63,378 nt of DNA, filler included, from Reclinomonas americana ATCC 50394 (GCA_048213135.1; 12 parts of 12 records of this genome joined end to end with filler, not necessarily neighbours in it), one strand, 5' to 3'. Shown: positions 63 through 22,300, counted from the first letter of the whole stretch. Notes: a model not told the origin generated them from the sequence alone. A program made the numbers and translations.

Positions 63-63
<1 letters not shown>

Positions 64-416: not shown

Positions 417-492
417 GCTGGCTCAAGGAAGTGTTTTTATTTGAAGAAGAAAACACGTGGGACCTGAGGACATTTGCTTTGTTCGCCAAATC

Positions 493-1789
493 ATGACGAG
501 CGTTGCTCCTCGCTGCTTGCGCTCATTCACTAGCCGCGAGTTTGCCAAGTCGAATCCGTATTGCGTGTCTGTCTCGCAGCGTGTTGCGTGGCCACGAGGC
601 CCAGTGCAACAGCTGTTGGCGGTGGAGTCCTTTGAGCGTCAAGTGTGGGTGTTTGAGGCGGATTCGTTGTCGCTGGTGTGCACGGTGCAGGTGACGAATG
701 CGGCGTGGCGGTGTGCGTTCTCGCCGACAGTGGCCACGCGACTGGTGGTGGCAGAGGGCCACGGCTTCGATTCGAGTATTGCATGCGCTTGTTTGATCTT
801 CAGTGTGATGAGGAGAGTGTGACTCCGCGGCTGCTCTGGGCGCTTGACAATTTTGAAGAAGGCGTGCTCGGGTTGGCGTGGTCGCATCGCGGCGACTTGG
901 TGTATGCGTGCTCGAACGACAAGACGCTGCGTGTGGTGAATGCGGAGACGGGGCAGGTGGTGCGCGTGATTGACGGGCAGCCCGAGGGTGCGCACGAGCT
1001 GCACCCGTCGCTCTCAGGGAAGGTGGTGGTGGCCTCCTATCTCGGAGGAGCACACATCGCTTGGGATATGGAGCGCGGCGTTGCGCTGTGGCAGCGTCCG
1101 CCAAACAACCACCGGTCAAGCTCGTTGATCACCAGCGACGACTGCCATGTGGTCTGCACGAGGCACAGCGACGTACCGCAGCTGTGCGACTTGTGGACGG
1201 GTGAGCCGGTGCGCGAGGCGATGCCGGAGTTGGGCGAGGCCACGACGTTGACGTTTTTCAGCTCGCCTGCTGGATTATATGCGGTAGCACGACATCTCTG
1301 CGGTTGCGTCAGCGACACCAGGTTGCACACTGTGATCGATACTGACGCACTGTTGACACGGCCACACAGATATGCGAGTGTTTCGAGTGAGGAATACCGA
1401 GTTCGAGTTGGTGAACACGCTGCGCAATGTCTTGCCCACAGCTCTGTCATCTGTCGATGTTACTTTTCTCGACACTGGAGCGATTGTGGTGCTGCAGAGT
1501 CGAGGACTTTTGCAAGTGTGGGATGCAGGTGCGTACTATGTGGGAGAAAGAAAGAGGGAGAAGGAACTCACCGTTGGAGATGCACGCAGGTCTGCTGCCC
1601 GAGGCAGGTCCTCTGCTGCGAGAGGAGGTGCGAGCAGCCTGTGACGCCGTCGAAGCACTGCAAGAAGTCGAGGCTGCGGTGGAGGGCGACGGCGGCGAGC
1701 CATTGCCCAAACTCGCGCTGCGTTGTTTCCTGGTGGAGGAAGCACGGCTGCAGCTGTTGCGCTGGTCACTGAGTCTCGATTGTCAGTGA
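493..1789 (+). pseudogene. WD40-like beta-propeller protein, copy A, with a 1-bp deletion near 784 (pseudogene or sequencing error); introns 1303-1369 and 1529-1589
   Basis: Colinear with copy B. 'att gca tg cgc ttg' versus copy B 'ata aca ttg cgc ttg' shifts the frame. WD-like segments GVLGLAWSHRGDLVYACSNDKTLRVVNAETG and LLQVWDA. Confidence 0.75.
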
Positions 1790-1958
1790 AGTGCAATTTC
1801 TCGGAACATTGTCTTGGCGAAAGCGTCAAGGCGCCAACGAGGTGTCGTTCTATGCGTTTGTGGCTGCGGTGGTACATGCAAAGAACGAAAGGCGTGAAGG
1901 GCGGGACGCGGAGGGACTTCTTGGCTCACATTTTCGTCAATCAAACGATCAATCAAAC

Positions 1959-3284
1959 ATGACGAGCGCTCCTCCTCGCTGCTTGCGTTCATTCACCAGC
2001 CGCGACTTTGTCAAGTCGCACGCCTACCGCGTCTCTGTCTCGCGTCGTGTCCCGTGGGAACGAGGCGCACGCGGGTCCGTGCAACTGCTGGCGGTACCGT
2101 CGTGTGATCGCACAGTGCGAGTGTTTGAGGCGGATGAATTGTCGCAAGTGTGCACGGTGGAGGTGGGGAATGCGGCATGGCGGTGTGTGTTCTCGCCTAC
2201 AGTGGCCACTCAGCTGGTGGTGGCGGAGGGCAGCATGTATGGAAAGAGTATAACATTGCGCTTGTTCGATCTCCAGTGTGACGCGAAGAGTGTGACTCCG
2301 CAGCTATTGTGGGTGAGTGACAGTTTCGGAGATGGCGTGCTTGGTCTGGCGTGGTCGCATCGCGGTGACTTGGTGTATGCGTGCTCGCACGACAAGACAC
2401 TGCGTGTGGTGAATGCGGAGACGGGCCAGACAGTGCGCGTGTTTGCCGATCAAGTCGAGTGTGCACACGAGTTGCGACTGTCGCCCTCTGGCAACGTACT
2501 GATGGCTACCTACCGCAAAGGGACGCGCATCGCGTGGGACTTGGTACGCAGGATTCCGCTGTGGAAGCATCCGCCTCCCGAACTCGCGTCGGTTCACCAT
2601 CGACCGAGTTCACTGATCACCAGCGATGGCCAGCACGTCGTCTGCACGATGCTCGACAACGTGCCTCGGTTGTGCAGTCTGCGGACAGGCAAGCCAGTGC
2701 GCGAGGCGATGCCCGAGTTGGGAGAGGTCACGACGTTTTTCACCTCGCCTGGAATCTCGTACGTGGTGGCTCAAGTACGTTGCGGTTGCGTTACTGACGA
2801 CAGTGCACACACACGCAGTCTCTTCACATGCTATTGTGCTGACACTCCTTTGATGCCGCACAGATTTGCTGGTGTTCCGAGTGAGAAACACCGAGTTCGA
2901 GTTGGTAAACACATTGCGCGACGTCTTGCTCCCGGAACAGACGTATGTCGATGTAGCCATTCTCGACACGGGAGCTATTGTGGTGCTTCATGGTGGCAAG
3001 CATGGTTCTCTGCAAGTGTGGGATGCAGGTGCGTGTCGTTGCAGAAAACAAGAGAGAGGGAAGGCAACTCAGTCGGGGATGCATACTGCGTAGGACTACT
3101 TGGTCACTTGTTGCGAGATGAAGTGCGAGCAGCCTGTGATGCCGTCGAAGCACTGGGAGAAGTGGAGGCTGCGATGGAGGGCAACGACGGCGAGCCATTG
3201 CCGAAACTCGTGCTGCGTTGTTTCCTAGTGGAGGAAGCACGGTTGCAGCTGTGGCGCTGGTCACAGAGTCTCGATTGTCAGTGA
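1959..3284 (+). CDS. WD40-like beta-propeller protein, copy B, join(1959..2784,2864..3028,3094..3284)
   Basis: WD-like repeats (SCDRTVRVFEA, SHDKTLRVVNA, SLQVWDA). Two GT-AG introns at the same positions as in copy A. Helical C-terminal tail. Confidence 0.75.
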   Translation: MTSAPPRCLRSFTSRDFVKSHAYRVSVSRRVPWERGARGSVQLLAVPSCDRTVRVFEADELSQVCTVEVGNAAWRCVFSPTVATQLVVAEGSMYGKSITLRLFDLQCDAKSVTPQLLWVSDSFGDGVLGLAWSHRGDLVYACSHDKTLRVVNAETGQTVRVFADQVECAHELRLSPSGNVLMATYRKGTRIAWDLVRRIPLWKHPPPELASVHHRPSSLITSDGQHVVCTMLDNVPRLCSLRTGKPVREAMPELGEVTTFFTSPGISYVVAQVRCGCVTDDSAHTRSLFTCYCADTPLMPHRFAGVPSEKHRVRVGKHIARRLAPGTDVCRCSHSRHGSYCGASWWQAWFSASVGCRCVSLQKTREREGNSVGDAYCVGLLGHLLRDEVRAACDAVEALGEVEAAMEGNDGEPLPKLVLRCFLVEEARLQLWRWSQSLDCQ

Positions 3285-3380
3285 AGTGCAATTTCTCGGA
3301 ATATTGTGCGAGAGACCACCTGCTGCTGACCGGTCGATTGGCGATGCTTGATGGATAATCGTGAGCTTGGGTGCCTTCCT

Positions 3381-3424
3381 CTTCCTTCCTTCCTTCCTTC
3401 CTTCCTTCCTTCCTTCCTTCCTTC
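3381..3424. repeat. (CTTC)n tetranucleotide microsatellite
   Basis: Perfect CTTC tandem run. Confidence 0.9.
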
Positions 3425-3529
3425 GTTTTTACAAAAAAAAAAAGTAATAATAGTAGTAGTAGTCAGAGGTCAAGGGAATGAAAGGTACAGTGCTGAGAGG
3501 TGCATTCACCATTGTCGTAACAACAACAA

Positions 3530-3629
3530 NNNNNNNNNNNNNNNNNNNNNNNNNNNNNNNNNNNNNNNNNNNNTTAATTAATTAANNNNNNNNNNNNNNN
3601 NNNNNNNNNNNNNNNNNNNNNNNNNNNNN
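3530..3629. other. Artificial contig spacer, first of 11 (others start at 8388, 17389, 19289, 22702, 24091, 27742, 55833, 57309, 59482, 61975; each 100 nt)
   Basis: Identical N44-TTAATTAATTAA-N44 blocks with stops in all six frames. Confidence 0.99.
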
Positions 3630-3926
3630 CGTCGTCATCAATTGCAAAGGAACCTTGTAGATCCCATCATCACCACCATTCATTATAATATTAGGTTTAC
3701 TTTCTACTGCAGAGAGTCTTCCTGCGCTGCGATCTCTTGGCTGCATCCATCGACAGCGCGCGCGCTGCGCATGCGCAGCGCGCATCCATGGATCGAGTCC
3801 ATCGCTCATCATCATAGCCAACAGCGAACATCGATGAATCCATCGACATGTACGTATACTATACAGCAGCAGGTGGTGTCCCACACGCCTCAGCACAGTC
3901 ACCGGGGAACGCCCTTCTTCAACAAG

Positions 3927-4806
3927 TACATTCGGCGTCAAAGGTATTCCGAAATTTTACCGTTGCACTTTTTTTCCTGCACGTGGATGCGTCAACGCGA
4001 TTTTTTTGCGCGAAAAACGAAGTCCGGGACTGCCCGAACAACCCTGTCAACTCCGTTTCTCGCGGAAATTTTCGCTTCTGCAAGCCTGATTCACTATCGT
4101 GCGACATGTCACGCACACTTCGAAACATTTTTCCCCGAAGAGTGCTACCACGGTTCGCAATAAGTGGCGCACACAGAAGTGTTCAGCAACAACCGCCACA
4201 CACGGGGTGCGCACCAGCGCTGTCTCCAGATGAGTCCAGTGATCTGCCGCTGATGATCATAGAATTTGGGTGACAGTGAGAGATGACCGTTGGAGAAGAC
4301 CGCACCCTTCCTCTGCGCCACCGACGACCGGTTCGGCGCCACTGCACCAGAGCTTGTTCCTGTGGTCTCCCGCACTACGAGGATGTGTGGTGCACGATGA
4401 GATGGAGTGAGCAGCCTGCAGTGTGAGCAAAGAAGCGTGCTGCTCCTGGCCGCACCTCTGCCAAGCGTACGGCTGTTCTGGTGGTGCACCAAATCGCCGC
4501 CAATGACTGCCACTTATCAGACATGTCCCCAACCCAATCAAGAACCTGTGGATATGAGTGAGCGAGCGTGTGGGCGAGCGTGAGTCGGGTGGGAGTCGCA
4601 AGGCGATTTTCGATCAGTCACCAAAAATTCCATTTTCTCTCCGTGCAACACCCGCGAAATGTACACCGCCTTGGTTCGTTTCACCGGTCTTACATAATGA
4701 CGCAGAAGCCTACCGTAAAGTTTGTGAAGACGGCTTGGAAAGAACTCATCTGGTTCTGCTGTGGCGATTTTTTTTTATGTTCGGAATACTTTTAAATTCG
4801 AATGTA
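3927..4806. mobile_element. Non-autonomous DNA transposon (MITE), Tc1/mariner-like, with TA target-site duplication
   Basis: Left end TACATTCGgcgTcAAAgGTATTCCGAA (3927-3953) matches the reverse complement of 4780-4806 at 22/27 nt. TA at both ends. The element is absent from the paralogous promoter at 12327-12400. No transposase ORF. Confidence 0.7.
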
Positions 4807-5020
4807 GTCCCATGGCCACCTGTCTGACGGATGCACACCAACGATCGGAAAATTCGAAGCACGGCTGTCGACTTGTTGAGAGTGCTGCTGCAGGCTAGTG
4901 GACACGATTGCCTGTCACAACTGAGCACGACGGCAAAACGGGAGCGGGGAGCGAGAAAGCATTTTCACATTTGGCGCCAAATTCTACGGTTTCCTTATTA
5001 CTCTCATCACGCCGCTTCTC

Positions 5021-8000
5021 ATGAATGCCAACGAGCGCGCGCTGCTTTTCTCGTGCTCCTCAAGCAATCGTGTTGCCGACCTGCGCGTGCATGTCAGCGT
5101 CGCCATCGTCGTCTTCTTCTCATTCATTCTCGCAGCAAGTTGCGTCACGGTACGGTGCATTTGTCGTTGCCACTCTTCTTCAAACACAAACACGCCTCCT
5201 TCTGTCTTGATCCGCTCGCAGGCGCCCAGACAGTGACCACCGCTGTGGCCAACAATGTCACTGGCTCGTCCGCCACTCTCAACGCGTGGGTCAATCCCAA
5301 CAATGTCGCTGGTGGCACTACCAACTCGTTTGAGTGGTCTCCATACGCCGCTGCCGTTGGTGTCTCCTCTGCCACTGTCTCCGCCTTTGTGGGCACGGCG
5401 GGCGTGTCGGGAACGACGGACGGTGTTGGAGCAAGTGCGCTATTCTTCCAGCCACTGGTACCCTTCATGGATGACATTGATTGCTTTCTCTCACACACAT
5501 TCTGGACTGACGCGCTTGTGCTCTCTCGACAGGGACTGGCCTTCGACGCCATGGGGAACTTGTTTGTCGCCCACCATGGGTTTGTGTGCACCCACAAATG
5601 CATTGTCTCGCTGTCCACTCGTCTGCTTTCTTTCTCACTCTCACTCACACGCGACCATGGCAGCAACTGTCGCATTCGACGCATCACGCCCGCTGCCACT
5701 GTGACAACGTTTGCGGGAGGCACCTGCGGCCTGGCGAATGGCACAGGAGTGGCAGCTCAGTTCAGAAAGTATGTTCTCTCTCACACTCTCGCACATTCTT
5801 TCTCCCGTCACGCACGCCCTTGCATACATTCACAGAGTTACCGACCTGGCCTTCGACCGAACCACGGGAACCATGTATGTTGCCGATGTGAGTGCGCGGC
5901 ATGTTTGTGATCACGTGTGATGCATTCTGCTGACTCAAGAGACTCTGTGTGCATGCGCAGCAATTTAACCACGCCATTCGCGCTGTCACGTCAGCGGCAG
6001 TGGTCACCACGTTGGCGGGCAATGGAGCGACGGGAAGTGCCAATGGCACGGGTGCAGCGGCCTCTTTCTATAATCCCCACGGAGTGGCAGTGGATGCCAC
6101 GAACCAAGTGATGTATGTGGGTGATTGGTACAACAACACCATTCGGCGAGTGACATATGCCGGTGCGGTGACGACCTTTTGTGGCTCTACGGGCATGAGT
6201 GGCATCGCCGATGGTGCGTGTGCGGGAGCGGCGCGATTCGGTGGTCCCAATGGTGTGCTGCTCGTCGGCACCACGCTGTATGTTGGTGAGTGCTGTGTGG
6301 GAGAAAATTTAAAGGGAGATGCACGGCTCTCCTTTCTCATCTGTGTCTTCTCTTTGTGTGCGTGTGCAGCCGATCGTGGGAGCCACTCCATCAGGGTCAT
6401 TGACACTGTGGCGATGACAGTGACGACGGTGGCGGGTTCGACGAGCGGCGCTTCTGGATCCACGGATGGCACCGGTGAGTTCATTCTTATCGACAGTACT
6501 GTTTGATTCCCTACGTTCGTGCTGACTGACAGCAACCCTTGGACCAGGATCCGCTGCCCGTTTCAATTTTCCTGTGGGACTGGCATACGACGGTGGAAAC
6601 AACGTGATCTATATCGCTGATGTTTAGTATCTCCACTTCCCATGCAGAGCCGTCTTCTTTCTCATGAGCCCGACCGCACAGTTATCCAACTACACCGTGC
6701 GGCAACTTCGATTGTCAGACTCGTCAGTGAGCACCATCGCTGGCGCGGTGGGCATGAGTGGCTCCGCCGTCGGGAGCGCACTGACCGCGGCTCGCTTTAA
6801 CTTGGCTCATTTTGTCGCCTTCGATGCATCAACGGCATCGATTCTGGTTTCCGATTACGGCACACACGTTATCCGTCGCCTCTCGCTTTCCTCCCAGTCG
6901 TTGTCAGCCACACCCGCCACCGCCACTGGCTCTCTGGCTTCGTCGATCACCGCCTCGCTGACAGGGTTAGCGAGCAATTGGACCTACTACAACCGCGCCG
7001 TCGTCGTCACCTCCACGCCCAGCACCATTAACGGCGCCACCGTATCGTTCACCACCACCACCAATGTGGCTCCAACCGACATTAGTTGCTCGTCGACGAC
7101 ATATGTGTCGCCGTCGGTGGCGAATCAAGTCGTGTGTGCACTGCAAACGACAGACGCGAATGCGGGCCAGTCGTTCACGTACTCGATTGTCGGCGGCGTC
7201 AACAGCGGAGTGTTTTCGATCAGCGGACAGTCATTGGTGATTGTGGCGGCGGGCCAGGCGGGCAGCCCGCTGGCGGTGACGATTCGGTCGACCGACAATG
7301 GATCGCCGCCGCTGTTCTTTGACAAGGCGTTCAGCATCACCACGGGTGAGACGAATGGGGAACTGCGTGGTCAAGTGTGTAGTGTATCTGCCACTCCCTT
7401 TCGGGGGCCTCTTGCTGATCTTCTCGTCCCCAGTCTTCTTCTTGTTCTTGTTCTTGTTCTTCTTCTTTCTCTTCTTCTTCTTCCTCTTGTTCTTCATCGT
7501 CTCCTTCTCCTACTTGTTCTCCTTCCTCTTTCTCTCCGTCTTGGTCTTCGTCTTCTTCTTTCGTCCTCGTCCTCCTCTCGGTTTCCTCCTACCGCTGTTG
7601 GTCATTCACAGTGATCTTCTTACTTGTTGGTATTCCACAGTCACGCAGTCATTGGCAACACTGGCGGCCAGCAGCTTGTCAACGTCGTCGGCGACGCTGA
7701 ATGCTGTGGTGGGCAACTCCGTGGCGGCCTCGACAATGAGCAACTCATTCGAGTGGGCGCCATCGACGGCTGCATTCGGTGTCACACCAACAGTGTCGAC
7801 TTGGTTGGGTACAGCGGGCATGCATGGCTCGACGAATGGTACTGGCACAGCTGCTCGTTTCACTTTTACGTCGGTTCGTGCACACGTTGTTGCAGTACCG
7901 TGTTTCACGATGTAAATCTCAACCGTGCAGAGCATCGATTTTGATGCGACTGGCACCGCGTTTGTGTGTGATGCTGGTAATCATACGATCCGGCGAGTGA

Positions 8001-8487
8001 CTAGCGCAGGAGTGACGTCTACTTTCCTGGGAACTGCCGGAGCAGCAAGCCTGGTCGACGGGGTTGGTACTGCGGCGCGGTTTTACTATCCCGTTGACTT
8101 GTCGATTGACCTTTCCACCGGCTACCTGTACATCACAGATGTTGCGTTGGTTGCACAACGGATGAAAGAGTGTGACTTGAAGAGTATTGTGTCGCTCACT
8201 CCTGTACACTTTCCAGGCAAGTAACAGTGCAATACGTGTGAGCACGCCTTCTGGCTCTGTGTCAACACTGGCTGGCAACGGATCGTCTGGCACTGCGAAT
8301 GGAACCGGATCGAATGCGAGGTTTAATGGTCCACACGGAATCGTCGTAGACTCGGCGAACAAGGTGATGTACGTTAGTGAGAATTTCNNNNNNNNNNNNN
8401 NNNNNNNNNNNNNNNNNNNNNNNNNNNNNNNTTAATTAATTAANNNNNNNNNNNNNNNNNNNNNNNNNNNNNNNNNNNNNNNNNNNN

Positions 8488-8543
<56 letters not shown>

Positions 8544-11500
8544 GCTGCACTGCTTGTACCAGTGCATCTCAGAACCTGTCTTACCGCCACTCAGGTTACA
8601 TATGGCGGTGAGGTCACTACCTACTGCGGTACTATTGGGTCGTCGGGAACAGCCGACGGCGCATGTGCATCAGTAGCAACATTTGCTAATCCGAATGGCT
8701 TGGAATTGGATTCAATCGCCAATCGGCTGTACGTCGGTGCGTGTATTCGTACGTGCGTGCGATTACTATCGGTTCTCTGCGAATCACTGTGGTCAAGGAC
8801 GGGTGCTCATATCTTGGGAGATGATTGCAGCTGCTCGAGGTGCACATTCCGTTCGTGTGATCGACATGCTGGCAATGACAGTGTCGACTCTGGCCGGCTC
8901 GCTCACTGGAGCATCAGGATCAACGGATGCCACGGGCACTGCCGCTCGATTCAACGAACCTGTTGGCATCTCGCTAGATCGAGGGCGAGGCGTCCTGTAT
9001 GTCTCTGAAGTTGCGTATTCTTGTTCCACTGGAATTGCTGCTCTCTGCGTTCTGCTCATCACTCGTGACACACTTAGGCAACCAGCCACACGATTCGCCA
9101 AATCGTTATTAGCACGGGTGCTGTGACGACCATCGCCGGTGCTGCTGGGTCTTACGGATCGGCGAACGGGAGCCCGCTCACTGTTGCTCGACTTAATGTC
9201 CCGGTTCGCTTTTTTTGTTTATGTTCACAAGAAGCGTGTTCAAAAGAAGCGCTGCTTAGCTCAATTGCATTGCATTGAATGCAGCACTACATGGCATTCG
9301 ATGCTGCGACGTCTTCTCTGTACATCGCGGGTACGAGTTTACCTGCAGTAAGAGGTTTGACAATTGTGTTGAGTTCTCATGCTATCCACCATCAGAGTGG
9401 GACAACTCCACCATCCGTCGACTCACCATTGGCTCCACCACCGTCTCGGCCACTCCGGCCTCTACTGGAGTCGCTTCCAGCACCACCGTGACCGCCTCTT
9501 TGACGTCCCTGGCCGCCAACTGGACGTACTACTTTCGTGCCATCTCGACCTCCACCGTGCCCAGCACCCTCACCGGCTCCACGATGTCCTTCACCACCTC
9601 CAACTCGGCGCCGACCAATGTGACGTGCACCGGAACGACCACCTATGTCGCGCCATCAACTGCTAGCGTGCCGCTGTGTACGATGAGCACCAGCGACGAC
9701 AACGTGGGGCAATCGTTTACGTACGCGGTCAGTGGAGGAGCAAATGGCGCTGCATTCTCAGTAAGCGCTGGCGCCCAGTTGCAGATCGCGTCGGCGGGCC
9801 AGTCTGCCAGTCCGTTGGTTGTCACTGTCCGCTTGTTCGACAATGGCACACCGCCGATGTTTTTCGACAAGTCATTCAGTGTGACGTCGGGTGAGCTGAT
9901 CAGCATGGAATTCGTTGTTTCTTGGTGTGAAATGCTGACCTTGTTTCGGCGCAGTGAACAATGCACCGACGGCGGTTACGCTGAGTGCGAGCTCGTACAT
10001 TCCGCCCAGCACGGTGGGTCAAGCGATTGGCACGATGAGCACGAGCGACGTGGACTCCCAGCAGTCGTTCACGTATTCGGTGGTGGGTGGCGCCAGCAGT
10101 GCATTGGTGACAATCGTGTCTGGCAATCAGCTGCAGTTTGCGAGTGCCAATGTGCAGGCGTCGTTGGTGGTGATTGTGCGCACAACCGACAATGGCAATC
10201 CAGCCATGTCGTTCGATCAGACGCTCAACATTGCTGGTTGCGTGCTTCGACATTGTACAATGTTTTGATGCAAGATTGAGCGCTTATTCTCCTTTGCGCA
10301 TGTGCATGCAGTACCCACTGTGACGTCGTTGTCAGCCACCTTTGTGTCGGCACTGGCCGGCCAGTTGATTACGTTGACGGGAACTGACTTGCTGAACAAC
10401 TCGGTCGACTCGTCGGCGTATGCGCTTGCCACTCCTCTCTGTGCTGCGGCGACGCCTCCAACGGCCGTGGCCAGCACCGCCGTCAGCAGTGTGTTCGGGA
10501 GTGCGACCAGCATCACGCTGACGATTGGTGCGGCGGGTGCAACTGGCGGCACGTACGAGTTGTGCACGCGATGGTCGCCCACCAAGACGTACCTGGCGGT
10601 GTCTTCGTTCGCCATCGGTGAGGAACGAGTAGACAAGAGAGAATTCTTTTTGTGCGTGCTTGTCAGCTTATTGGAGTGTGTGCAGGGAATGTGGCTCCGA
10701 GTGACATTCTGCTGTCGGGCGCACAGACATACTCTAGCGCGACAGTGCCATTCACGGTGGGCACACTGAGCATGGTGGATCTCAACACGGGACAGACGCC
10801 AACGTTCAGCATCGCGGGCGGAATACATGCGGCTCTGTTCAGCATTGTGGGTGGCAATCAGCTGATAATCTCGGTTGCCCCTCCGCTGAGTCGGCGATTG
10901 CAAGTGTTTGTGCAAGTGAGCGACGGGACGCTGACGTTCACGAAGCAGTTCGTGATTGTGTACGGTGCGCGATCGCGCATAGGAGACGGGATTAGAAGGG
11001 GAATAGGGAGAAGGGATGGAAAGGAAGACAAGCATGGTGCTAACGGCAGAATGTGTTGATATCGAGGGTGAAGGTTGCAGAGCGCGTACACGCGAGTGCA
11101 AAGAGCGGCAGCGATTCGAGTGAGTGGCACAGAGTTCAGTGTCAAGGGGAGCAGAGAGGGACAGAGAGTCGCTGTGTGCGTTCGTGTGCGTGTGTGTGTG
11201 TGAGAGAAAGAGACAGATAGGGTGAGCAAGGAGGGGGAGTGAAAAGTGCAGGGAATTCGACGACGCGAATAGCGAAGGCGGAAGCGTGGGTTACAGAGAA
11301 GAGTCGGGAGGGTATCGACGGTACATTCTTCGCTGAGTATGCGGTAAAGAGGAAGAAGACGCAGCCCTTTGATCTTGTCCCTCAGTGCGAGATTGTTTCG
11401 GTGGCTGGCGCCGGATGCACTCTCTTCTTAGTCGAGGCACTACTCGCGCTAGGTGTCATACACAGTTGTACATTGATTGATTGTGCACTGACAATGTCTG

Positions 11501-12282
11501 TGTGCAGCATCGATCGCGACTGCAGGCTGTGCGGCGGTGCAGCATGGAGTGGTGGCTTGTTGCGTTTGCTGTGAGCTTAGCATTATCATCGTCTACCATC
11601 TCACTCTTCGGCATACCGAGCAGCCGCGTTGGAAGTGTGCCAGTTCGAGGCAGTAGATCGACCTGGCGGCACGATCTTCGGTGTGTTTCTATCGGTTCTC
11701 AGCGAAGTCGGATGTTGCGAGTTGTGCGACCAGTGTCCGCTGTGTCGATCATGGACGTTTTTGGATGCTGCTGCGGCGTCGAATACTCTTGGAGTTGGTG
11801 TGTGCACCCTCAAGGCACGTGATCGTTGATGGTAAGAAGAGGCGCTTGACGAATGACGAGCTCATCTTCTCGGTGCATGCAGAGCACGGTACCGGCGGCG
11901 GCAGTCAATGCAGAGACCAGCAACGTGTGTGGCACGCATTTCTGCTTGGTGTCGGGACGCAAGACGAGTGCGGCTGCGTATGACAGCAGCGGATTCCAGA
12001 CGAGCACGGGTGAGTTTTTCGCAGAGATTAGAGAGAAAGAGATGAGGGAGGATTGTGGCTTATTGGCGTGCAGATCGACCTGGTGGCGATCTCACGTGGG
12101 CCATCAAGACAACAAGCGGAGCACAAGCATGCTCGCTGTGGTGCTCGCAGTTGGCCGCATGCGGCTCGTGGACGTTCACAGCGTCGACGAAACAGTGTGC
12201 GCCGAAGAGTGGCGTGGTGGCGACGTCGACGGGGACTGCGTGTGCGACCAGCGGTGACTGCACATCGGGGTTGAAGATCTGA
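5021..12282 (+). CDS. Large secreted multidomain protein: signal peptide, 2x[FN3-like domain interrupted by NHL propeller, cadherin-like], cadherin-like, IPT/TIG-like, cadherin-like, 2x PAN/apple-like; ~23 introns; spans the 8388-8487 gap
   Basis: Spliced frame gives VAIVVFFSFILAASA|QTVTT (signal peptide), NHL repeats (FYNPHGVAVD..MYVGDWYNNTIRRV), cadherin-like NxAPTDI..TTDANAGQSFTYS..STDNGSPP, and PAN-like DRPGGDL..CSLWC..CGSWTF..C.PK. The exon at ~11508-11558 is less certain. Confidence 0.8.
7420..7590. repeat. CTT-rich low-complexity tract inside intron 7346-7640
   Basis: Degenerate (CTT)n/(CTTGTT)n pyrimidine tract between a GTGAG donor and a CAG acceptor. Confidence 0.8.
8489..8542. repeat. 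Intronic (GT)n microsatellite at contig start
   Basis: Perfect GT run; probably caused the assembly break inside the NHL gene. Confidence 0.95.
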
Positions 12283-12326
12283 GTGAGATGGCTCAATTGC
12301 CTACTTGATTGTTGTAATACATTGTT

Positions 12327-13228
12327 ACGCCTCAGCACAGTCACCGGGGAACGCCTCGAGCTCCTTCTTAAACTGTGCGCCAATGCTGACGGATGCACAC
12401 CAACAACGATCGGAAAATTCGAATCACGCCTGTCGACTGGTTGCCGGTGCTGCTGCAGGCTAGTGGACACGATTGCCTGTCACAACTGAGCACGACGGCA
12501 AAACACTCGGAGAGAAAAGTCGAAATCGTTTTACTGAGACACGGCATTTTCACATTTGGCGCCAAATTCTACGGTTTCCTTTTCTCATCACGCCGCTTCT
12601 CATGAATGCCAACGAGCGCGCGCTGCTTTTCTCGTGCTCCTCACGCAATCGTGTTGCCGACCTGCGCGTGCATGTCAGCGTCGCCATCGTCGTCTTCTTC
12701 TCATTCATTCTCGCAGCAAGTTGCGTCACGGTGCATTTGTCGTTGCCACTCTTCTTCAAACACAAACACGCCTCCTTCTGTCTTGATCCGCTCGCAGGCG
12801 CCCAGACAGTGATCACCGCTGTGGCCAACAATGTCACTGGCTCGTCCGCCACTCTCAACGCGTGGGTCAATCCCAACAATGTCGCTGGTGGCACTACCAA
12901 CTCGTTTGAGTGGTCTCCATACGCCGCTGCCGTTGGTGTCTCCTCTGCCACTGTCTCCGCCTTTGTGGGCACGGCGGGCGTGTCGGGAACGACGGACGGT
13001 GTTGGAGCAAGTGCGCTATTCTTCCAGCCACTGGTACCCTTCATGGATGACATTGATTGCTTTCTCTCACACACATTCTGGACTGACGCGCTTGTGCTCT
13101 CTCGACAGGGACTGGCCTTCGACGCCATGGGGAACTTGTTTGTCGCCCACCATGGGTTTGTGTGCACCCACAAATGCATTGTCTCGCTGTCCACTCGTCT
13201 GCTTTCTTTCTCTCGCTCACACGCGACC
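12327..13228 (+). repeat. Recent segmental duplicate of the promoter and 5' part of the NHL gene (3885-3913 plus ~4825-5657)
   Basis: Near-identical sequence including introns. A 5-nt indel (TACGG) falls inside the predicted first intron. Confidence 0.95.
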
Positions 13229-13563: not shown

Positions 13564-13780
13564 AGAAGCACCTAATAGACACCACAGCGATGCCTCGCCG
13601 AATCCGCCCCGGCATTCATGAATACATCGTCTCGCGGCTTCACTCAGCAGTCGGTGTGGCGGCACGGACAACTTGCTAATCTGTCGCTCGTCTTCCAGTG
13701 TCTCAGATTTTCGCTCTCTCTATAAACAGGTACGTGGGTGGTGGTGCAGAGTGGATGAGGTGGGGATGAGTTTGAGGCAA

Positions 13781-15437
13781 CTACTGCATCTGCCTGGCGG
13801 CATTGAGGCGCGCCATGAGGTCACCCGTGGACTCGATTCGGTTTCGCATCGGTCCGCCAAAATCAGTGGCCGCAGTGGCGTCGGTCTTGAGCTGCACATC
13901 ACGACCCATGTGAGACTGCCTTTCCACCATCATTACCAACATACATACTCAAATCACAACAACGTACCGCCATCAGTGCCGGTGCCGATGGAATCCGGTT
14001 CAGCAGGCCCTCTGTGCCAATGTTCTCCTTCTCTTCGTACCGCCGTTGCAGATTGGCCAGCCGCTCCGACACACCGTCTGTGGTTAGAGTGGGATTCGCG
14101 AGCGGTGCCAGGGATGGCGCAGGTGCAGCCGAGGGCCCGGCGGCCGCGCCACCAATGGCGAGACCACCTCGCATTTCAATTGCCTGTGAAAAACAAACAA
14201 ACTCTCGTAAACCACACACGCACAGAAACAGTGTGCCGAAAACTCTCCTCACAAAGCAACTGACCTTTTCACGCGCCTCGAGTTGTCGCTCACGCTCGTC
14301 GAGCGCCCGCTGACGAGCATCCAGAGCCACCTCCTTCTCCCGCAGCTCCTCTTCGCGCTTCTTCATCGCGCTGATCTGCATGGCCATCTTGCGCTCGCGC
14401 AAGCGCGCCGAGATGGGTGGGAAATCCAGCAGCTGATCGACGTTCATACGCCGCGCCTGGTCGACTTGCAGCATGTTGGTGATCACGTCACGCAGCTCGC
14501 GCGAGTACGAGCTGGGAATGGGCTTGAACCTGCCCTCGCGAATCTTCATGGCCAGTGCCACTTGCGTTTGCGCCTCAAATGGCGGACTGCGCGTGAAAGA
14601 TTAAAAAGGAGTGAGTAAGACGATGGAGAACTACACATTAGGGAAGAGCAAACAGTTAAAAAACGCAACGCCAGCGCGCAGAGCTCGTACATCAGGCAGC
14701 CGAGGCTCCAGATGTCGGACTTTTGGTTGTACGGCACCTCGTTGACTTGCTCTGGTGACATGTAAAACGGCGTGCCGACGTTGGTGTAGGCAAACATGGA
14801 GCTCTTGGAGAGGACGCGAGCGAGGCCGAAATCGCCCAGCTTCACATTGCTCTGTGCGTCGAGGAAGATGTTGCCGGGCTTGAGGTCGCGATGCAACACA
14901 GCGCCCTCGTCGCGGTTGTGGCACTCCTTCAGCGCGCACAAACATTGCACAAAGATGCGCCACACAGTCTCCTCATCCAGCAATGTGCTGCAGCACACAC
15001 ACACACGGGAGGATGAGTCAACCAACGCACTCATTCCGACAGCATGCCAGACAACTAACCCTTCTCGTCGCGCCTTCTTGATGAGGGCTCCCAGATCGCC
15101 GCCTGAGCAGTACTCCATAACAATGTAGATCTTCTTGCGATCGCGGTCAATGATGCGGTCGTAGTAGCGCACAATGTGTGGGTGGCGCAGCTCGCGGAGA
15201 ATGTTGACCTCCGACACCAGCAGCTGCTTCTCTTTGTCCGACATGTTGCCATAGTACAGCTCCTTCCACACCAGTTGCTGCGTGCGTGTAGGACGGAAGA
15301 AGACAGTGAGCGACGAGAGTCGTCGTGGAGTCATATCTCGAGTTCCGACAGACCTTTCCGTCGGCCTTGCGGCGGATGCGACTCACTCTGCCAAAGGAGC
15401 CGGAGCCAATGACACCCAGCACTTCATATTGATCCAT
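13781..15437 (-). CDS. NEK2: NIMA-related kinase NEK2-like, complement(join(13781..13891,13968..14183,14265..14586,14670..14987,15060..15277,15354..15437))
   Basis: GSGSFG, LVWKEL.YG.M...EKQLLVSEVNILRELRHPHIVRYYDRIIDR, HRDLKPGN, DFGLAR, GTPFYMSPE. Coiled coil and KEN motif follow. Five GT-AG introns of 72-83 nt; the last exon is inferred. Confidence 0.92.
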
Positions 15438-16476
15438 ACTATCGCACACACACGCACACACGCAACAGTCAGCGTTCATGATGCGAACTGGTGGTTGCAG
15501 TGCCGTTACACACGTGCCATGCAACTGCGAGTGTCACTCTTGCCGTCTGGCGTGCTCATGCGTGCATGGTGTGTGGTGTCTCTCGCAAGCAAGCAAGCAC
15601 AGTGTTCACACATACACGCACAGAGATGGCGAGACAAGGGGCGGAGAGAGAGAGAGTGTGTGTGTGAGAGAGAGAAGACGGGCGAGTGCCTCACCTCGAT
15701 TGGGCCTCCGTGATAGGCAACGCTGACTGACACCACTTGCACGAGAGGAGAAAGGATAAGAGCGCGCGCGAGAGAGAGAGAGAAAGAGGAGGAGGAGAGG
15801 AGAGTGAGAGAACGAAGAGAGACAAGAGAAGTTCTTTGCTCGTCCGATGAGCCAAAAGCCGAAACGTTCCGAGGCCTGTCGGTGCATCCGAGCGGACGGT
15901 GGAATCGTGGCCAATCGTGAGATTGCGTGTGAGGTGAGCGTAAAGGCGCCTGCTGCTGTGTGTGTGTGCAAGTGTTGACGCACACGAGAGAGAATGAGAA
16001 AAGCGAGAATGTCACTGATTGTTTGCGTGTGTGTGTGAACGGAGTGTGACATTGCACTGCACATAAAAAGTGATCTCTGCCCTGCTCTCTTTCTCTCTGT
16101 GTGTGCATAAGAGAGAGCGCGCACATGTGAGCAAGTGCACACTCACACACACGCGCGCAATGAGAGCGCCTGTTGTACAGTTTGCAAACACGCACACACC
16201 GACTCAGAAAAAGTGTATTTATACAATTCGTCACTCCGCGCTGATTATGACTGACACGCGCGAGCTCACACAAGAGAGAAAGAAGAGAAGGGAGTGTGTA
16301 TGTGCCAAAGTGAGTGTGAATGAGAGAGAGAGAGCTGAAAATTTTAACAGCGCGACGTGTGTTTTTTGGTGCTCTCACACAAGTGTCATTCTCTCTCACT
16401 CAAAATATCTCTCCTCTCATGTGTGTATTTGTGTATCTGTGCAGTCTGTGTGTGTGTGTGTAAGTGTGTGTGCAAG

Positions 16477-16586
16477 ATGGCGGCCCCAAATAAGACGCTG
16501 ACGTACAAGCTGGTGCTGTTGGGCGAGAGTGCTGTCGGAAAGTCGTCACTTGTGTTGCGTCCCCTTGAGCGCTCTCAAGCACACCA

Positions 16587-16617
<31 letters not shown>

Positions 16618-17380
16618 TCACTCACGTTCACTTGGCGCACAGATTGCGATTTGTGCGAGGGCAGTTCTTTGAGTACCAAGAGTCAACAATTGGCGGTGCG
16701 CTGATTCTGCTGCCGCTGTTCTGGATGTCGTGTGTGTTTGCTGATGGTGTCTGTTTCTCGTGTGTGTGCGCAGCGGCGTTCTTGACACAGACTGTGCCAC
16801 TGAATGACACGATTGTCAAGTTTGAGATTTGGGATACGGCAGGGCAGGAGCGGTACCACTCTCTTGCACCGATGTACTATCGGGGAGCGGCAGCAGCGAT
16901 TGTGGTGTATGACATTACGAACCCGGTGAGCATGTTGTGTGGTGGTGTGTGTGCGTGGCTGGTTGTGGTACCGTCAGACGCGGGCTTCTCGAGTGGGTTG
17001 CACGAGCCGCAGCCGTCACCTGTTGCCGTGTTCCTCAAGTACACAGTGATTGTTATTCCCAAGCTTCTTTTGCACTCTCCTCAGTCTCCCCAGTCTCTCT
17101 CTCTCTCTCCCTTCCCTCCCCGCCTCATCCACTCACCTTTCCTCGCTTTCCCCCATCACACAGCACTCATTCGAGAAGGCCAAGGATTGGGTGAAGGAAC
17201 TGCAGCGCAAGAGCAGTGCCAACATTGTTATCGCACTGGCCGGCAACAAGGTGGACATGAAGGACAAGAGGAGAGTGGCCACCGAGGACGCGGAGCAGTA
17301 TGCCACCGACAATGGCATTCTGTTCCTGGAGACGTCCGCCAAGAACTCAATCAACGTGAATGAGATTTTCGTGGCCATTG
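16477..17380 (+). CDS. RAB5: Rab5 small GTPase, 3'-truncated, join(16477..16553,16643..16695,16774..16925,17164..17380)
   Basis: [50 protein letters not shown]; Rab5-diagnostic effector region. Confidence 0.95.
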
Positions 17381-17488
17381 GTGAGTTGNNNNNNNNNNNN
17401 NNNNNNNNNNNNNNNNNNNNNNNNNNNNNNNNTTAATTAATTAANNNNNNNNNNNNNNNNNNNNNNNNNNNNNNNNNNNNNNNNNNNN

Positions 17489-19288
17489 CCGCCGTCGACG
17501 CCATCTCGTTTGTCGTCATGCACGTGAGCCTGCTCATGCTCGTCTTCGACCCGGCTGTTGTTGGCGACACGGGCAACAACTTGTTCCTCGGCGCCGAGCT
17601 ATTGCCTTCTGTGGTGAGTCGGGATTTTTTGATTGGCTATATATCTCGCGAAAGGACATCCAATCAAACTTTGCATGCACGAATATTCATTCGGACTGAT
17701 TGGGTGATGGTGCAGATGCCAATGTCCCGCTTGTACGTGGCCTGGATGTTTGCCACTGCCTTTGTCGTGTTGCTACTGGTGCAATTGCGTCGCCTTCACC
17801 GCCGCCAGCAAGCCGAGCACGCGAATATCGGTGGAGGACTTGGAGTGACTGCAGATTCGTTTGCGGCCGGACTTGTCCGTTTGCAGGTTTGTTTCTGCTT
17901 CTCTCTCTCCCTCTCTCCTGCATGCGCGTCTGCGATGGAGGCCTGTGTCTGAGTTGTCTCCGCTGTGCAGCTGGCGCTGGTGGTCGGGCCCATGCTGCCG
18001 TCGTTGACGCTGCTGTTGATGCGCCCACTGCATTGCGACTTCAGCTCGCTGGAACATCTGAGCATGGAGCTCCGTCCGGATGACGATAGCTGGAGTTGCG
18101 TGCGCTGCCTTGGCGATGGCCCACTTAATCATGCGCTCACACACGATGCATATGGATGTTCTTTCACAGAATGCGATGACCCGACCAACGTGTTTCTGGG
18201 CTCCATAGGCCTGCTGTTCACTGTGCTGCTGTGCTTCCTCGCCGTGTTGATCCCGCTGCTGTTGCGTGGCATGCATGCTGATTCAGAGAGGTTCATCATT
18301 GGTGATGACGGGGGGGATGCCATTGCAGATCGCTGGACTTCCGACCGACGTCACGTTTGTGGAGTGCCGGCATGCTGAGTGGCCGCTACGTGGCGACTGT
18401 CAATGTGGTGCGAGTGGCACTTGCAGTGACGCACACATATGTGGCCAATGCGATGCCGCTGGCGCATGTGGTGGTGGCAGTGCTTGGCGCGGTGGTGTTG
18501 ATGGTGGGCCTGCTGCGTCACCTTCCACTGCACGTGCGTGCGTCGGCCAGCTTTGCGACGTCGTGGTGTGTGGCAGTGGTATTGGCGGCATGCGGCTGCG
18601 GCTATCTGGCGCTGACGCAGCAGTCGGATCCACTGTTGGGGACGGTGCTGTTCACGGAAGCAGCAATTGTGGGCGCCAGTGTGGCCGTTGGCTTGTCGAT
18701 TGGCGTGCTGCTGGTGCACGTGCGGCACAAGCAGATTTGCCGCGGCGTGGATCACTTTGTGGCATCGATGGCAATGGGTGGCGGCGGCTCGACCGCCGGG
18801 TCAGTGGTCTCCCTTGGCACAGGCAGTCTGGTGGGGCTATCGAGTCCCACTGCACGATACCTGGTGAGTGAGTTTGCGTGTGATTGAGGCGCGCGGAGTT
18901 CTTCTGTGCTCACATTACGTGTGTGCGCATCGGGGGTCACAGCGTGGTGAAGGATCGGTGAATGGCGGCGATGTGGACGACGGCAAGTTTGAGAACGAGT
19001 TGCGAGACTTGTTCCCCAATGTGTGGTCAGTTGAGCTGGCTGCGCGACTGCCACCAGCATCGGCACCCGACGCGTGGGGACGAGCAATGGATTTGTTTGA
19101 GCTTGGTGCGCGATCCTTCTTCATTTGTCTGAGTTATGGTACGAGTGAGCTGACGACGGGCTTGGTGATGCAGGGCGACTGCGCTTTGCGCAGAGTGAGT
19201 CGGATGTGGTGCCACTGCTGCATGTTGTCTACATGTGGAGCTTCAACGCGGAGGTCGAGCAGGCGCAGCTGCTGATTGCGGAGATTGC
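17489..19288 (+). CDS. TmcB-like multi-pass membrane protein, N-terminal part (spliced, partial at both ends)
   Basis: Several hydrophobic helices with a conserved-looking Cys loop (RPLHCDF..KCDDP), then SVELAAR..AMDLFELG, recalling the TmcB/TmcC-like family. GT-AG introns. Confidence 0.55.
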
Positions 19289-19388
19289 NNNNNNNNNNNN
19301 NNNNNNNNNNNNNNNNNNNNNNNNNNNNNNNNTTAATTAATTAANNNNNNNNNNNNNNNNNNNNNNNNNNNNNNNNNNNNNNNNNNNN

Positions 19389-22300
19389 TGGCTCAAGCAA
19401 CAGCAGCGGGAGCACTGGTGAGAAGCATGAAGAGAAGAAGAAGGAGGAGGAGGAGGCAAGGCTGCGCTGACTCGCTTTGTGTGCATGCAGTGGTGGAAGA
19501 GATGGACACGCCGGCTGGAGAGAACCTGCGTGGAGCGTCGGTGTACGTGTCGAAACACACAGTAGACGGAGGTGAGAGAGATGAGGATAGCACTCTCGGT
19601 GTCTGTTGCTAGTTGATTGAAGATCTGTTTGTGGTGCTGCAGGCAAGCAGCAGACATCTGGGTTTGAAATGACTGTCAGCGCACGCAGCGTCAGTGACAG
19701 TGAAGCGACAGCGACGAAGGCGGGCGCATCGGCCAGCAAGCTGCAGGTGTGTTTTAAGACGATGGCATGTATGATGCATGTCTCGACTGAAGGGTCAGTT
19801 TATCAATGTGCGCAGGAGGACCAGCAACGTGGCCTGTCGAACACCGCGTCGAAGCGCCTGAGTTGTGTCAACTGTGTCGTGTTCCTCCTTGCGTGTTCAA
19901 TCATGTGCTGATGGAGTGGCGTGCGTGCGTGCAGACTTTGCGGGAAGCGAGCAACTTGCGCGCCACACGTCGAATCGCGATGCCCAGGCCGACAGTCGAA
20001 GTGACCACGGGTCGTCGGTGGCAGGTGGCAGGTGTGTGCGGATGAGAAAAAGTGCGCGTCGGAGTGGAGACCACTGACAGATGTATTTCTTGTCTCTCTT
20101 CATCAGCTCGAAGCACTCGGGTGGCAGTTCAATGCGATCGGGAGTGAGCGCAGACAGCACTGCGTCTGCGCTGCTGCGACGGACAATTATTGCGGAGAAG
20201 GTGTGGTGACACGCACTTGTCATTCATATGATGATGCTCACCAGTGTTTCTTCATATTGCAGAACCCCGCGACAACACGTGCGTGCTGGGTTCTGGTGAT
20301 GATGACGGTGGCATGTATGGCGGCACTGGTGTTTGTGTTTGCGCGATCAAACACCATGGTCTCACAATTCAATGACGAGAGCGGCCTGTTTTCCACGTTG
20401 GCGACTGCTTGGTTGCGTTTTCTTCCGTATGTGTGTGGAGGAGGACATGGACAGTCAGTCGCTCACGTGTGCGTCGTTGTGTGTTGCACAGCACATACGC
20501 CTCGCGTGTGGGACTTACCGCGTGGCGCATGTGGAACCAAAGAGCAGTCGCCGACTCGGTCGAGGCACTTCGTCTTTTCATCCCAACGAACACTACATTC
20601 GTACGCAGCGCTCTTGATCAGCTTACTACTCGGTGAGAATCGTGAACTTTCAATCTCAGTTTGTGTTGCTGTTGCTTATAGTGATGTTGACTGGTTTACT
20701 CGTGGCAGACACTACTCCTCGGAGACTGCTGCTCCGGTTACCTTCAAAACCACGATATACTCCAACTCGACAGGCGTCATCTCACCCGTCACGCTTCCGG
20801 GCATTGATTTCTTGCTCACATTCCTCGACAGTGCCATAGTACGATGTTGTGATGCGCTCATTGTCGGTCGCAAGGCTCTCACTTCTTCTGGTTGGCGCAG
20901 GACTTGTTCCACATGCCACTGGCCACCATGACCACTACCGTCCGCCAGGAGTCGTTGGTGACCGTCCTGGCGAACGCTGATGTTGTCAACGATGTCATCT
21001 TCCGCATCGCACAAGAGTTCAACAATCGCACCGTGCAGTCGGCAAGCAGCTACTCTGCCGAAGCATGGGTCGACTTTGCTGTGGTTGCGGGGTGCGTGTG
21101 GTGGTGTGTGTGCAGTCGTTGAGGCAGATGCATGGTACTCACGCACGGGTGGTCGCAGGCTTTGTGTTGGCCTGCTTCTATTGGTGTTCCTGCCGATTGT
21201 GTGGGCAGTCCGGCAAGGACTGATCAAAAATTTGCGCGCGTTCGCTTTGATTCCGAAGGAGGCTGCGCGCGACGTTCACCACGGTCTGCGTGATCGGTAT
21301 CTCAACTATCTGGAGGCGTCGGAGGTGGTGCGCGATGTTGCGTCTCTCTGGTTTCCGCGTGCTCAGTGGTAGCTGTGCCGTGCCCGTTGCTAAATGTGCT
21401 GATTGTGCAGGGCGTCCACCCGTCGACAGTGGTGACCACCAAGTACCTGGCGACGCAGTGCACTCGTGCAGACATGCAGTTCACGCAGAATGTTTTCTTC
21501 CGTGCGTGTGTAGTGGTGATGGTGGCATTCATCGCAGCCACGTGTATGTCGTTGCGTGACGAGATTGCGGACTCTTTGCATCCCTGTGTGTGGATCACTA
21601 ACTGCATTTGTTTGTCTGTTCACCAGGTACGGTGCATCCATAATTGCCAACGAGACAGTGCGGTGCATGAATGTGGCTAGCGTGGCGCAAGCCAGGACCA
21701 CGTCGTTCCCGGTGATTGTGCAGGTTTCCTTGCAATACCTGAATTCGGCGAGCATCGTGCCGAAGGATCAGACGCAGATTCGACTGCAATCGCTGGTCGC
21801 TCGGGTGTGTTTGCATTTGTCAGTCGCTGCGTTGCGATTGTGAAGTGTGTCGCTTACTTGCTCACATGACAGGCACGCGAAAAGCAAGTAGCAGCGACGC
21901 AACTCGTCATGAGTAATGGGTGGGATGCGGCAGCTGACGCGGCTCAGAACTCAATGCTGTACGATCCACGGTGCACACCGCAGGAATCGGCGATTGTCAC
22001 CAATCCGCCGTGGGCGCAGCAGGTCAAGTGCCTGTCGATGAATGACCTGGTTTGTCGAGCTGTGTGGAAAGACGATGCTTCACTTTGCTTTAACTGACCC
22101 GGCTGTACAGGCACGCAGTGTCCTCGATGCGGCCGACTTGCTGGCGTCTCAATACAACAGTCCCGCGAGTGCCAAAGACAAGGACATTGTCGAATACCTC
22201 ATAGCTGCGCGACCAGTGCTTGGCGCGTACTACTCGCAGAGTGCGCAGGTGAGGACATTGATGATGTTGTTTCGCTAGTACGACCGTGTACTTCTACTCA

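Follow-up and report, generated by a model that had tools for sequence, protein, structure and literature searches.

How far can the recognition of a 5' splice site move away from the common rule? The choice of this site is thought to be nearly universal: the motif G^GURAGU (the caret marks the exon-intron border) pairs with the invariant 5' terminus of U1, a small nuclear RNA (snRNA), and then meets the ACAGAGA box of U6, while rare animal sites and the separate minor spliceosome are the exceptions. The question is raised by a stretch of 63,378 bases from Reclinomonas americana ATCC 50394 (GCA_048213135.1), hereafter the window, in which the heptamer GTTGCGT recurs at intron starts. The original prediction, made from the sequence alone, took the heptamer for a frequent second class of 5' splice site, used by about a quarter of some 50 introns. 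We confirm that this class is real and frequent, distinct at its 5' end and ordinary in its 3' half. The heptamer is present at all 13 coordinates first given for it (the minus-strand copy is 14663-14669), it opens 15 of the 58 introns of our curated models, or 14 of 54 when the duplicated block 12602-13563 is left out, and two more donors that carry it, at 18261 and 20412, were absent from that prediction.

The window consists of 12 short contigs chained by runs of N around TTAATTAATTAA. Its eukaryotic part is made up of the first five contigs (1-3529, 3630-8387, 8488-17388, 17489-19288 and 19389-22701), 22,301 bases in total, with 55-59% G+C and intron-rich genes. Linkers lie at 3530-3629, 8388-8487, 17389-17488, 19289-19388, 22702-22801 and at further positions, and features read across them are invalid. 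The whole window holds 22 matches to GTTGCGT, compared with 9.76 ± 2.93 in 100 dinucleotide shuffles, none of which reached 22. On both strands of the eukaryotic contigs there are 18 matches, where an order-3 Markov model predicts 5.08 and 500 order-1 simulations give 6.4 ± 2.6 (maximum 16); the 39,977 bases of bacterial contigs hold four. According to the curated models, 15 of the 18 eukaryotic copies are located at intron starts, and donor use per occurrence is 15/18 for GTTGCGT versus 4/34 for GTGCGT and 6/25 for GTGAGT. The copies that are not donors are these:

583..589, plus strand: coding GTTGCGT in exon 1 of gene A1, its frame conserved with the paralogue A2.
15460..15466, minus strand: GTTGCGT located 23 nucleotides upstream of the NEK2 ATG at 15437, a non-donor in the curated models.
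21897..21903, minus strand: GTTGCGT antisense to a gene; the upstream frames on that strand are open for just 1-15 codons.

Introns were parsed with a small generalised hidden Markov model whose coding part is three-periodic and of order 2, joined to an order-2 model for introns, a prior on length and an acceptor matrix; coordinates served as its seed, and it defines donors as GT only and acceptors as AG. Curation by hand, where paralogues, internal repeats or homologues fix the boundary, gave ten gene models with 58 GT-AG introns, and all 58 have these ends, as the parsers allowed only such pairs. The non-blind parser found RAB5 intron 1 and the three NEK2 introns that homology had checked; it misplaced RAB5 introns 2 and 3 and put several same-phase donors a few bases off. 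A parser relying on codon usage only was dropped, as it mis-built RAB5 and predicted antisense genes, and listing every frame-compatible acceptor per site is too permissive to decide in stop-poor DNA. In a donor-blind version of the parser the first 8 intron bases are neither trained on nor scored. At three intron penalties it picks GTTGCGT at 11 of 73, 9 of 50 and 8 of 36 introns, where chance predicts 0.42, 0.29 and 0.21 (18 of 3,154 GT dinucleotides carry the motif; binomial P-values from 5e-13 to 3e-11). It is a rough tool, recovering 39, 31 and 23 of the 58 curated donors at these penalties. The introns under discussion, including two with related donors and one ordinary intron at a homologous position, are listed below.

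1303..1369, plus strand: GTTGCGT intron of WD40-like gene A1, 67 nucleotides, phase 1; blind parse at penalty -3.
2785..2863, plus strand: GTTGCGT intron of WD40-like gene A2, 79 nucleotides, phase 1; placed by paralogy with A1.
5139..5221, plus strand: GTTGCGT intron 1 of an NHL gene, after a hydrophobic first exon, 83 nucleotides, phase 1; all parses.
5888..5960, plus strand: NHL blade intron with the ordinary donor GTGAGT, phase 0, at the position homologous to 8141.
6622..6681, plus strand: NHL blade intron with the related donor GTTTAGT, 60 nucleotides, phase 0; placed by blade register, with an in-frame TAG inside the donor.
8141..8216, plus strand: GTTGCGT intron of NHL gene module 2, 76 nucleotides, phase 0; placed by blade register.
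9010..9077, plus strand: GTTGCGT intron of the NHL gene on the next contig, 68 nucleotides, phase 0; placed by NHL blade register.
10237..10311, plus strand: GTTGCGT intron at a domain boundary of an NHL/TIG protein, 75 nucleotides, phase 1; all blind parses.
11559..11623, plus strand: possible GTTGCGT intron, ambiguous, 65 nucleotides; blind parse at penalty -3.
12720..12797, plus strand: copy of the 5139 intron in the duplicated block, GTTGCGT, 78 nucleotides; all blind parses.
14587..14669, minus strand: NEK2 intron 3, GTTGCGT (14669 down to 14663), 83 nucleotides, phase 0; all blind parses.
16554..16642, plus strand: RAB5 intron 1, GTTGCGT, 89 nucleotides, phase 2; EST-derived protein (EST, expressed sequence tag) and all blind parses.
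18095..18169, plus strand: GTTGCGT intron of an orphan membrane-protein gene (contig 17489-19288), 75 nucleotides, phase 1; all blind parses.
18261..18328, plus strand: further GTTGCGT intron of the same orphan gene, 68 nucleotides, phase 2; all blind parses.
19862..19934, plus strand: intron with the related donor GTTGTGT, 73 nucleotides, phase 1; non-blind parse (the blind parses take 19874).
20412..20491, plus strand: GTTGCGT intron of a gene on contig 19389-22701, 80 nucleotides, phase 2; blind parses at penalties -3 and -5.
21337..21410, plus strand: GTTGCGT intron of the same gene as 20412, 74 nucleotides, phase 0; all blind parses.
21551..21626, plus strand: possible GTTGCGT intron of the same gene as 20412, ambiguous, 76 nucleotides, phase 2.

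For RAB5 and NEK2 it had been proposed that homology fixes the boundary, and it does, through an EST-derived protein in the former and two homologues in the latter. The RAB5 exon 17164-17382 is 100% identical to the EukProt protein EP00694_Reclinomonas_americana_P008149 (P0123 below), derived from EST EC799852.1, so this organism, or one very closely related to it, is the source of the eukaryotic contigs. Of all the GT..AG pairs that were tried at intron 1, none but 16554..16642 yields P0123, with 166 of 166 residues, and removal of this intron is shown by a spliced product identical to the EST-derived protein. Sliding the junction by 1-6 bases keeps the residues at the protein level, but only 16554..16642 then has GT-AG ends. 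The intron start (16554-16560, GTTGCGT) and the start of exon 2 (16643-16649, ATTGCGA) have TTGCG in common, therefore read-through encodes the same three residues and the tblastn match ran into the intron. The same protein fixes introns 16696..16773 (GTGCGC) and 16926..17163 (GTGAGC), and the fourth donor is GTGAGTT at 17381. For NEK2 intron 3 we enumerated GT..AG pairs exhaustively: 14669..14587 gives the top global alignment to the homologue P0001 (752, next 731) and also the best one to P0009, named Andalucia godoyi Nek2 (647, next 626), and tblastn with P0001 is ungapped across the junction. Beyond RAB5 the genes lack close relatives on record: for NEK2, P0001 is the best at 71% identity, followed by others at 65% and below. 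Searched with the NEK2 open reading frame, metagenome contigs gave at best 58% identity and genome contigs 57%. The 57% match, contig L081 from a bin labelled uncultured Rhizobiales, has at 600-1818 a spliced eukaryotic NEK2 gene with lower G+C and with different, ordinary-looking intron starts; this contig is a eukaryotic contamination of a bacterial bin.

Protein repeats and paralogues place several other members. Four NHL introns (5888, 6622, 8141 and 9010) are all in phase 0, directly after blade D/E and before x-x-N/S-x-x-I/V-R. This agrees with the class switch claimed between the two NHL modules, where GTGAGT at 5888 and GTTGCGT at 8141 occupy the same phase-0 blade position, and class and ordinary introns indeed occur in the same genes, even at homologous positions. 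Read-through at 8141 meets a stop, and this intron is picked by the non-blind parse and by none of the blind ones; at 9010 the parsers took in-phase GTs 9 or 18 nucleotides upstream (9001, 8992), which deletes conserved motif residues. The donors GTTTAGT (6622) and GTTGTGT (19862), named before as fitting the same pattern, both open curated introns. Like the boundary introns 7346, 9891 and 10618, the 10237 intron follows a G in phase 1 at the equivalent position. In the NHL/TIG/PAN protein every intron that separates its repeated extracellular domains (7346, 9891, 10237, 10618, 10965) is in phase 1 after G, a pattern that would be expected of domain duplication by exon shuffling. Sites 1303 and 2785 are one junction in two paralogues with the same residues around it; at 2785 the parsers preferred GTTGCGG at 2779 or GTACGTT at 2775.

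Some sites are supported by gene models only, namely 5139 with its copy 12720, 18095, 18261, 20412 and 21337, and each of them is picked by blind parses. The 5139 intron connects the ATG-bearing exon with the main reading frame; 18095 is in frame and open, with a CTCAC motif and a CAG end; 18261 is placed by the frame change required between the reading frames 17953.. and 18309... In homology searches the large exon of the 17489-19288 gene gave a single weak match (E = 4e-5) and the exon between 21337 and 21551 gave none, so 18095, 18261, 20412, 21337 and 21551 have no outside support. As a whole, our data show that cleavage at class introns occurs directly before the G of GTTGCGT.

What separates the class from other donors is confined to the region around the 5' splice site. 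Among the other 40 donors the pattern is G^GT[G]N[G]T, with G at -1 in 32, G at +3 in 27, G at +5 in 35 and T at +6 in 20, position +4 being A in 16, C in 13 and T in 9. Class donors have G at exon position -1 in only 4 of 14 cases (Fisher exact test, p = 0.0009), and the difference persists among donors confirmed by the blind parse (3/10 versus 22/25, p = 0.0016). The lack of a +5 G, as claimed initially, holds throughout, +5 being C in 14 of 14. The requirement for T at +7 is strict: GTTGCG[A/C/G] serves as donor in none of its 11 occurrences versus 15 of 18 for GTTGCGT (p = 1e-5). Conversely, lengths (median 75.5 nucleotides versus 73) and phases are alike. A YTNAY motif lies 9-34 nucleotides before the 3' end in all 14 class introns (CTCAC in six, CTGAC in two), the median distance from the A of the branch-like CTCAC/CTGAC motif to the 3' end is 23.5 nucleotides versus 21 in other introns, and acceptor position -3 is C in 13 of 14 (T in one) versus 39 of 40. 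We infer that after 5' splice-site recognition class introns are excised by the same major-type machinery as the others.

It is more difficult to explain how the heptamer is recognised. The canonical U1 5' end is ..ACUUACCUG (..ACUUAC..). Pairing was predicted with ViennaRNA, bulges being allowed and pseudouridines written as U. With the canonical end the median duplex energy of class donors is -1.45 kcal/mol (range -2.9 to +0.5) versus -7.25 for the others, and the consensus with -1 G and +5 G complementary to this end is not followed by class donors. No register is predicted to give a stable duplex with it; with hypothetical ends containing G and C a stable duplex is predicted. The original prediction supposed, as its first reading, that the shifted or bulged register of rare human donors is routine in this lineage. 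Canonical U1 would then make the commonest and most rigid donor the weakest one, which argues against it, and the -1 G counts point the same way. Nor is GTTGCGT simply GTGCGT with one extra T, as had been suggested: the four bases after GTT (n = 16) are GCGT in 14 cases and TAGT and GTGT in one each, unlike positions +3 to +6 of ordinary donors (n = 38), with GAGN in 14 and GCGT in four (binomial P = 2e-12), and GTTGAGT, which occurs once in the eukaryotic contigs, is not used as a donor. A hypothetical U1 end ..ACGCAC.., in which G and C replace the two pseudouridines, gives medians of -7.4 for the class and -7.3 for the others, and 4 of the 54 donors stay weaker than -4; an end ..ACGCAAC.., the complement of the heptamer, gives -11.0 and -5.9. 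The +3 G (27/40) and frequent +4 C (13/40) of ordinary donors are what a U1 of the ..ACGCAC.. type would predict.

On these grounds we lean slightly towards recognition of the class through a diverged or additional U1-like snRNA, in line with the alternative of variant U1/U6 snRNAs that the original prediction also offered. GUUGCGU would pair, either without interruption or with a single bulge, with an snRNA 5' end unlike the canonical ..ACUUAC.., belonging either to the sole U1 of the organism, in which G and C would replace the two pseudouridines, or to an additional variant of U1 that complements GUUGCGU; the hand-over to U6 would follow with the register moved by one base. Pairing of such strength inside the intron would explain both the free exon base and the rigidity of the motif. 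A bolder proposal, which we hold as tentative and rather doubtful, is that two systems of 5' splice-site recognition work side by side in Reclinomonas americana on otherwise identical short introns: a degenerate G^GTRNGT class would stand beside one read by an snRNA of its own, either a variant U1 or a transformed RNA resembling U11, the 5' end of which would complement GUUGCGU. If true, this would be a third intron class beside the U2- and U12-types, defined at its 5' end only and comprising about a quarter of introns.

Could the heptamer, rather than being cleaved, be a motif such as an enhancer that adjoins the true donors, or could the class be inflated by gene models? In-phase GT alternatives within 15 nucleotides exist at five class sites, some of them ordinary-looking, three curated class donors are never picked by the blind parse, and that parser finds at best 39 of 58 curated donors. 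We nevertheless consider it very unlikely, since no other GT..AG pair reproduces the EST-derived RAB5 protein, two NEK2 homologues are matched best with the heptamer donor, no alternative GT in phase lies within 36 nucleotides of 1303 or of 12720, and parses blind to the motif choose it 20-40 times above chance. A less improbable, though still unlikely, alternative is ordinary U1 working in an unusual register, with one U of GUUGCGU bulged or the helix shifted by one, and widely tolerated here. Such an extra U is indeed seen: removal of one T from GTTGCGT, GTTTAGT and GTTGTGT leaves GTGCGT, GTTAGT and GTGTGT, all of them ordinary donors here, and the 3' halves of class introns are identical in kind to those of other introns. 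In human cells the bulge +2/+3 and the shifted register have been proven, according to PMC4856993. However, duplexes with canonical U1 stay near zero even with bulges, the spectrum of bases after GTT is far from ordinary plus T, and GUUGAGU (-4.3) and GUUAAGU (-4.2), which would pair better, occur once each in the eukaryotic contigs and neither is a donor. Also, Table 3 of PMC4856993 counts 54 'bulge +2/+3' and 36 'bulge +3' sites among 201,541 human 5' splice sites, while here such donors open about one intron in four.

We give little credence to a separate second system in which the heptamer is the transformed 5' splice site of an expanded minor-type (U11/U6atac-like) or dedicated ribonucleoprotein. 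An extended invariant intronic 5' motif without exon -1 preference is a hallmark of U12-type introns, class members are intermingled with ordinary introns within the same genes, and in the Physarum data of the preprint 10.1101/2020.10.12.336362, a minor class of more than 20,000 introns has transformed signals. But GTTGCGT differs from [G/A]TATCCTT, and TCCTTRAY (6 matches in the window versus 4.2 expected) is found in no class intron, its sole match in the eukaryotic part being at 8792 on the minus strand; the branch-like motif and its distance are those of other introns, and a switch of class at homologous introns is easier within one machinery. We therefore rejected a U12-type identity: the branch-like motifs, CAG ends and lengths match other introns. 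The only exact match to the U12-type 5' motif in the eukaryotic part, 13337-13344, is on the strand opposite a gene model, and the donor GTACCCTT (5458-5465 and 13034-13041, of an in-frame 75-nucleotide intron) is one mismatch away from the U12-type motif GTATCCTT, a likeness probably due to chance as no U12-type branch motif follows. Similarly improbable in our view is recognition without U1 pairing, in which a protein, or U6 or U5 directly, would bind UUGCGU at the intron start. The negligible predicted pairing with canonical U1, the strict +7 T and the -3 G preference described below would suit it, and Tan et al. (PMC4856993) cite U1-independent introns and the fixing of the cleavage site by U6. 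No candidate factor is known, though, no evidence in the window bears on it, and exact invariance over 7 bases is seen more typically where RNA pairs with RNA than at protein sites.

It should be noted that several observations count against our own account, both of the class and of its recognition. The sample is small (22.3 kb, about ten gene models, 58 introns), and some members are paralogous or duplicated (1303/2785, 5139/12720, the NHL repeats), which leaves roughly 11 independent ones. Transcript-derived support exists at one junction only, that of RAB5, and at the protein level. The heptamer at 2785 and 9010 was chosen in curation via paralogy or repeat register, and that at 21551 was curated without independent support, the parsers, including the blind ones, having taken 21542 (GTGTATG) or 21548 instead. 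In-phase alternatives lie near 2785, 20412 (GTATGTG, 15 nucleotides downstream) and 21337 (GTGCGCG, 9 nucleotides upstream) as well as 11559 (GTGAGCT, 12 nucleotides downstream), where the upstream exon is also uncertain. Regarding the snRNA, Rfam and tRNA scans of the whole window gave no match, hence no snRNA gene to inspect, and the canonical U1 end used for pairing is an 11-mer. Of 342 exonic GT sites taken as controls, 41% pair with the ..ACGCAC.. variant at -6 or better; this variant is thus poorly specific and not a clean solution. Moreover, GTGCGT, the perfect match to it, should be the commonest ordinary donor and accounts for only 4 of 40. Finally, an enrichment of G at exon position -3 (9/14 in the class versus 8/40, p = 0.006, uncorrected) fits no register considered and is unexplained.

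The closest known parallels share only parts of this picture. Papers of Roca and co-workers from 2009 and 2012 reportedly describe human GUU-type 5' splice sites used with a bulge at +2/+3 or in a shifted register. The class resembles them in its extra U after GU, in its downstream G and U, which lie one base beyond the usual +5 G and +6 U, and in its GT-AG ends and ordinary 3' halves. It differs by its abundance, by independence from the -1 G, and by a motif that is invariant over 7 bases and of the GCGU type instead of the AAGU or GAGU type favoured by canonical U1. With U12-type introns and those of Physarum polycephalum the class has in common an extended near-invariant intronic 5' motif, the absence of an exon consensus and scattering among ordinary introns; in Physarum the second class is likewise abundant. 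The preprint 10.1101/2020.10.12.336362 defines U12-type introns by [G/A]TATCCTT together with TTCCTT[G/A]AC, and the class shows neither this motif nor a U12-type branch, but ordinary branch-like spacing and a CAG end. Intron-poor protists and yeasts with rigid GTATGT-type donors, of which Streblomastix is an example (PMC1501061), also have a near-invariant extended donor that is presumably matched base for base by an snRNA. There, however, one rigid motif serves all introns and keeps the +5 G, while in Reclinomonas, whose genome is rich in introns, a rigid motif without +5 G stands beside an ordinary class that is degenerate. Introner-type (transposon-derived) families, in which many introns have a common sequence feature at their ends, were considered and rejected: local alignment scores have a median of 8 in class-class (91), other-other (703) and class-other (532) pairs, the maximum is 15 in class-class pairs versus 21 among the others, and class introns are thus no more alike than other pairs beyond the heptamer.

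The jakobid behind the eukaryotic contigs is rich in introns, and these are short (median about 75 nucleotides). The source that PMC1501061 cites for intron-rich jakobids is the 2002 paper by Archibald, O'Kelly and Doolittle on jakobid chaperonin genes. PMC1501061 itself noted jakobids as a possible intron-rich exception among excavates from one gene family. Another jakobid, Andalucia godoyi, is intron-poor: PMC7050145 gives 134 introns, every one GT..AG, spread over 107 of the 864 genes it examined; in the A. godoyi supplement the heptamer occurs 40 times, and the two occurrences displayed lie in coding sequence, one as an N-terminal ATG-TTG-CGT. According to PMC8134430 and PMC8321541, R. americana has partial genome assemblies that are public. 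No description of a GTTGCGT donor motif was found in the full-text literature searched for the motif and for jakobid or Reclinomonas introns; the 2002 chaperonin paper, which lies outside it, may show such boundaries.

Some features of the window are of separate interest. Microsatellites, (CA)n/(GT)n and (CT)n, are very common (1-60, 8488-8542, 16590-16620, many intron tails) and are located at contig ends, and CACAG is the ending of many introns. The region 12300-13563 is, compared with 4830-5650 and 1480-1790, a near-exact repeat of the first three NHL gene exons on one contig; it has a 6-base deletion inside its GTTGCGT intron and at about 13220 changes over to the 3' end of a third WD40-like gene copy, so that it is either a real recombinant or an assembly chimera. 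Gene A1 is one base short relative to its tandem paralogue A2 (about 785, region 760-800), which shifts the frame, and is either a pseudogene or affected by a sequencing error; the splice signals of its introns are intact. The last seven contigs (22802-63378, 61-67% G+C) are bacterial, with ordinary metabolic genes, namely those for a fused ABC permease, two gamma-glutamyltransferases, L-arabinonate dehydratase, aminotransferases and a MocR-type regulator. They probably come from food or culture bacteria of the flagellate, and since R. americana is a bacterivore their presence in the assembly would fit.

The GTTGCGT class is a new variant among spliceosomal 5' splice sites. A free-living jakobid with a class of introns that lacks the +5 G and ignores the exon base would be a natural experiment on how far recognition can shift, and the R. 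americana case would show whether snRNAs and splice sites co-evolve in bulk. In practical terms, about one intron in four of this lineage will be placed wrongly by gene finders that have learned from ordinary donors, and its nuclear genome serves in work on how early eukaryotes and mitochondria evolved.

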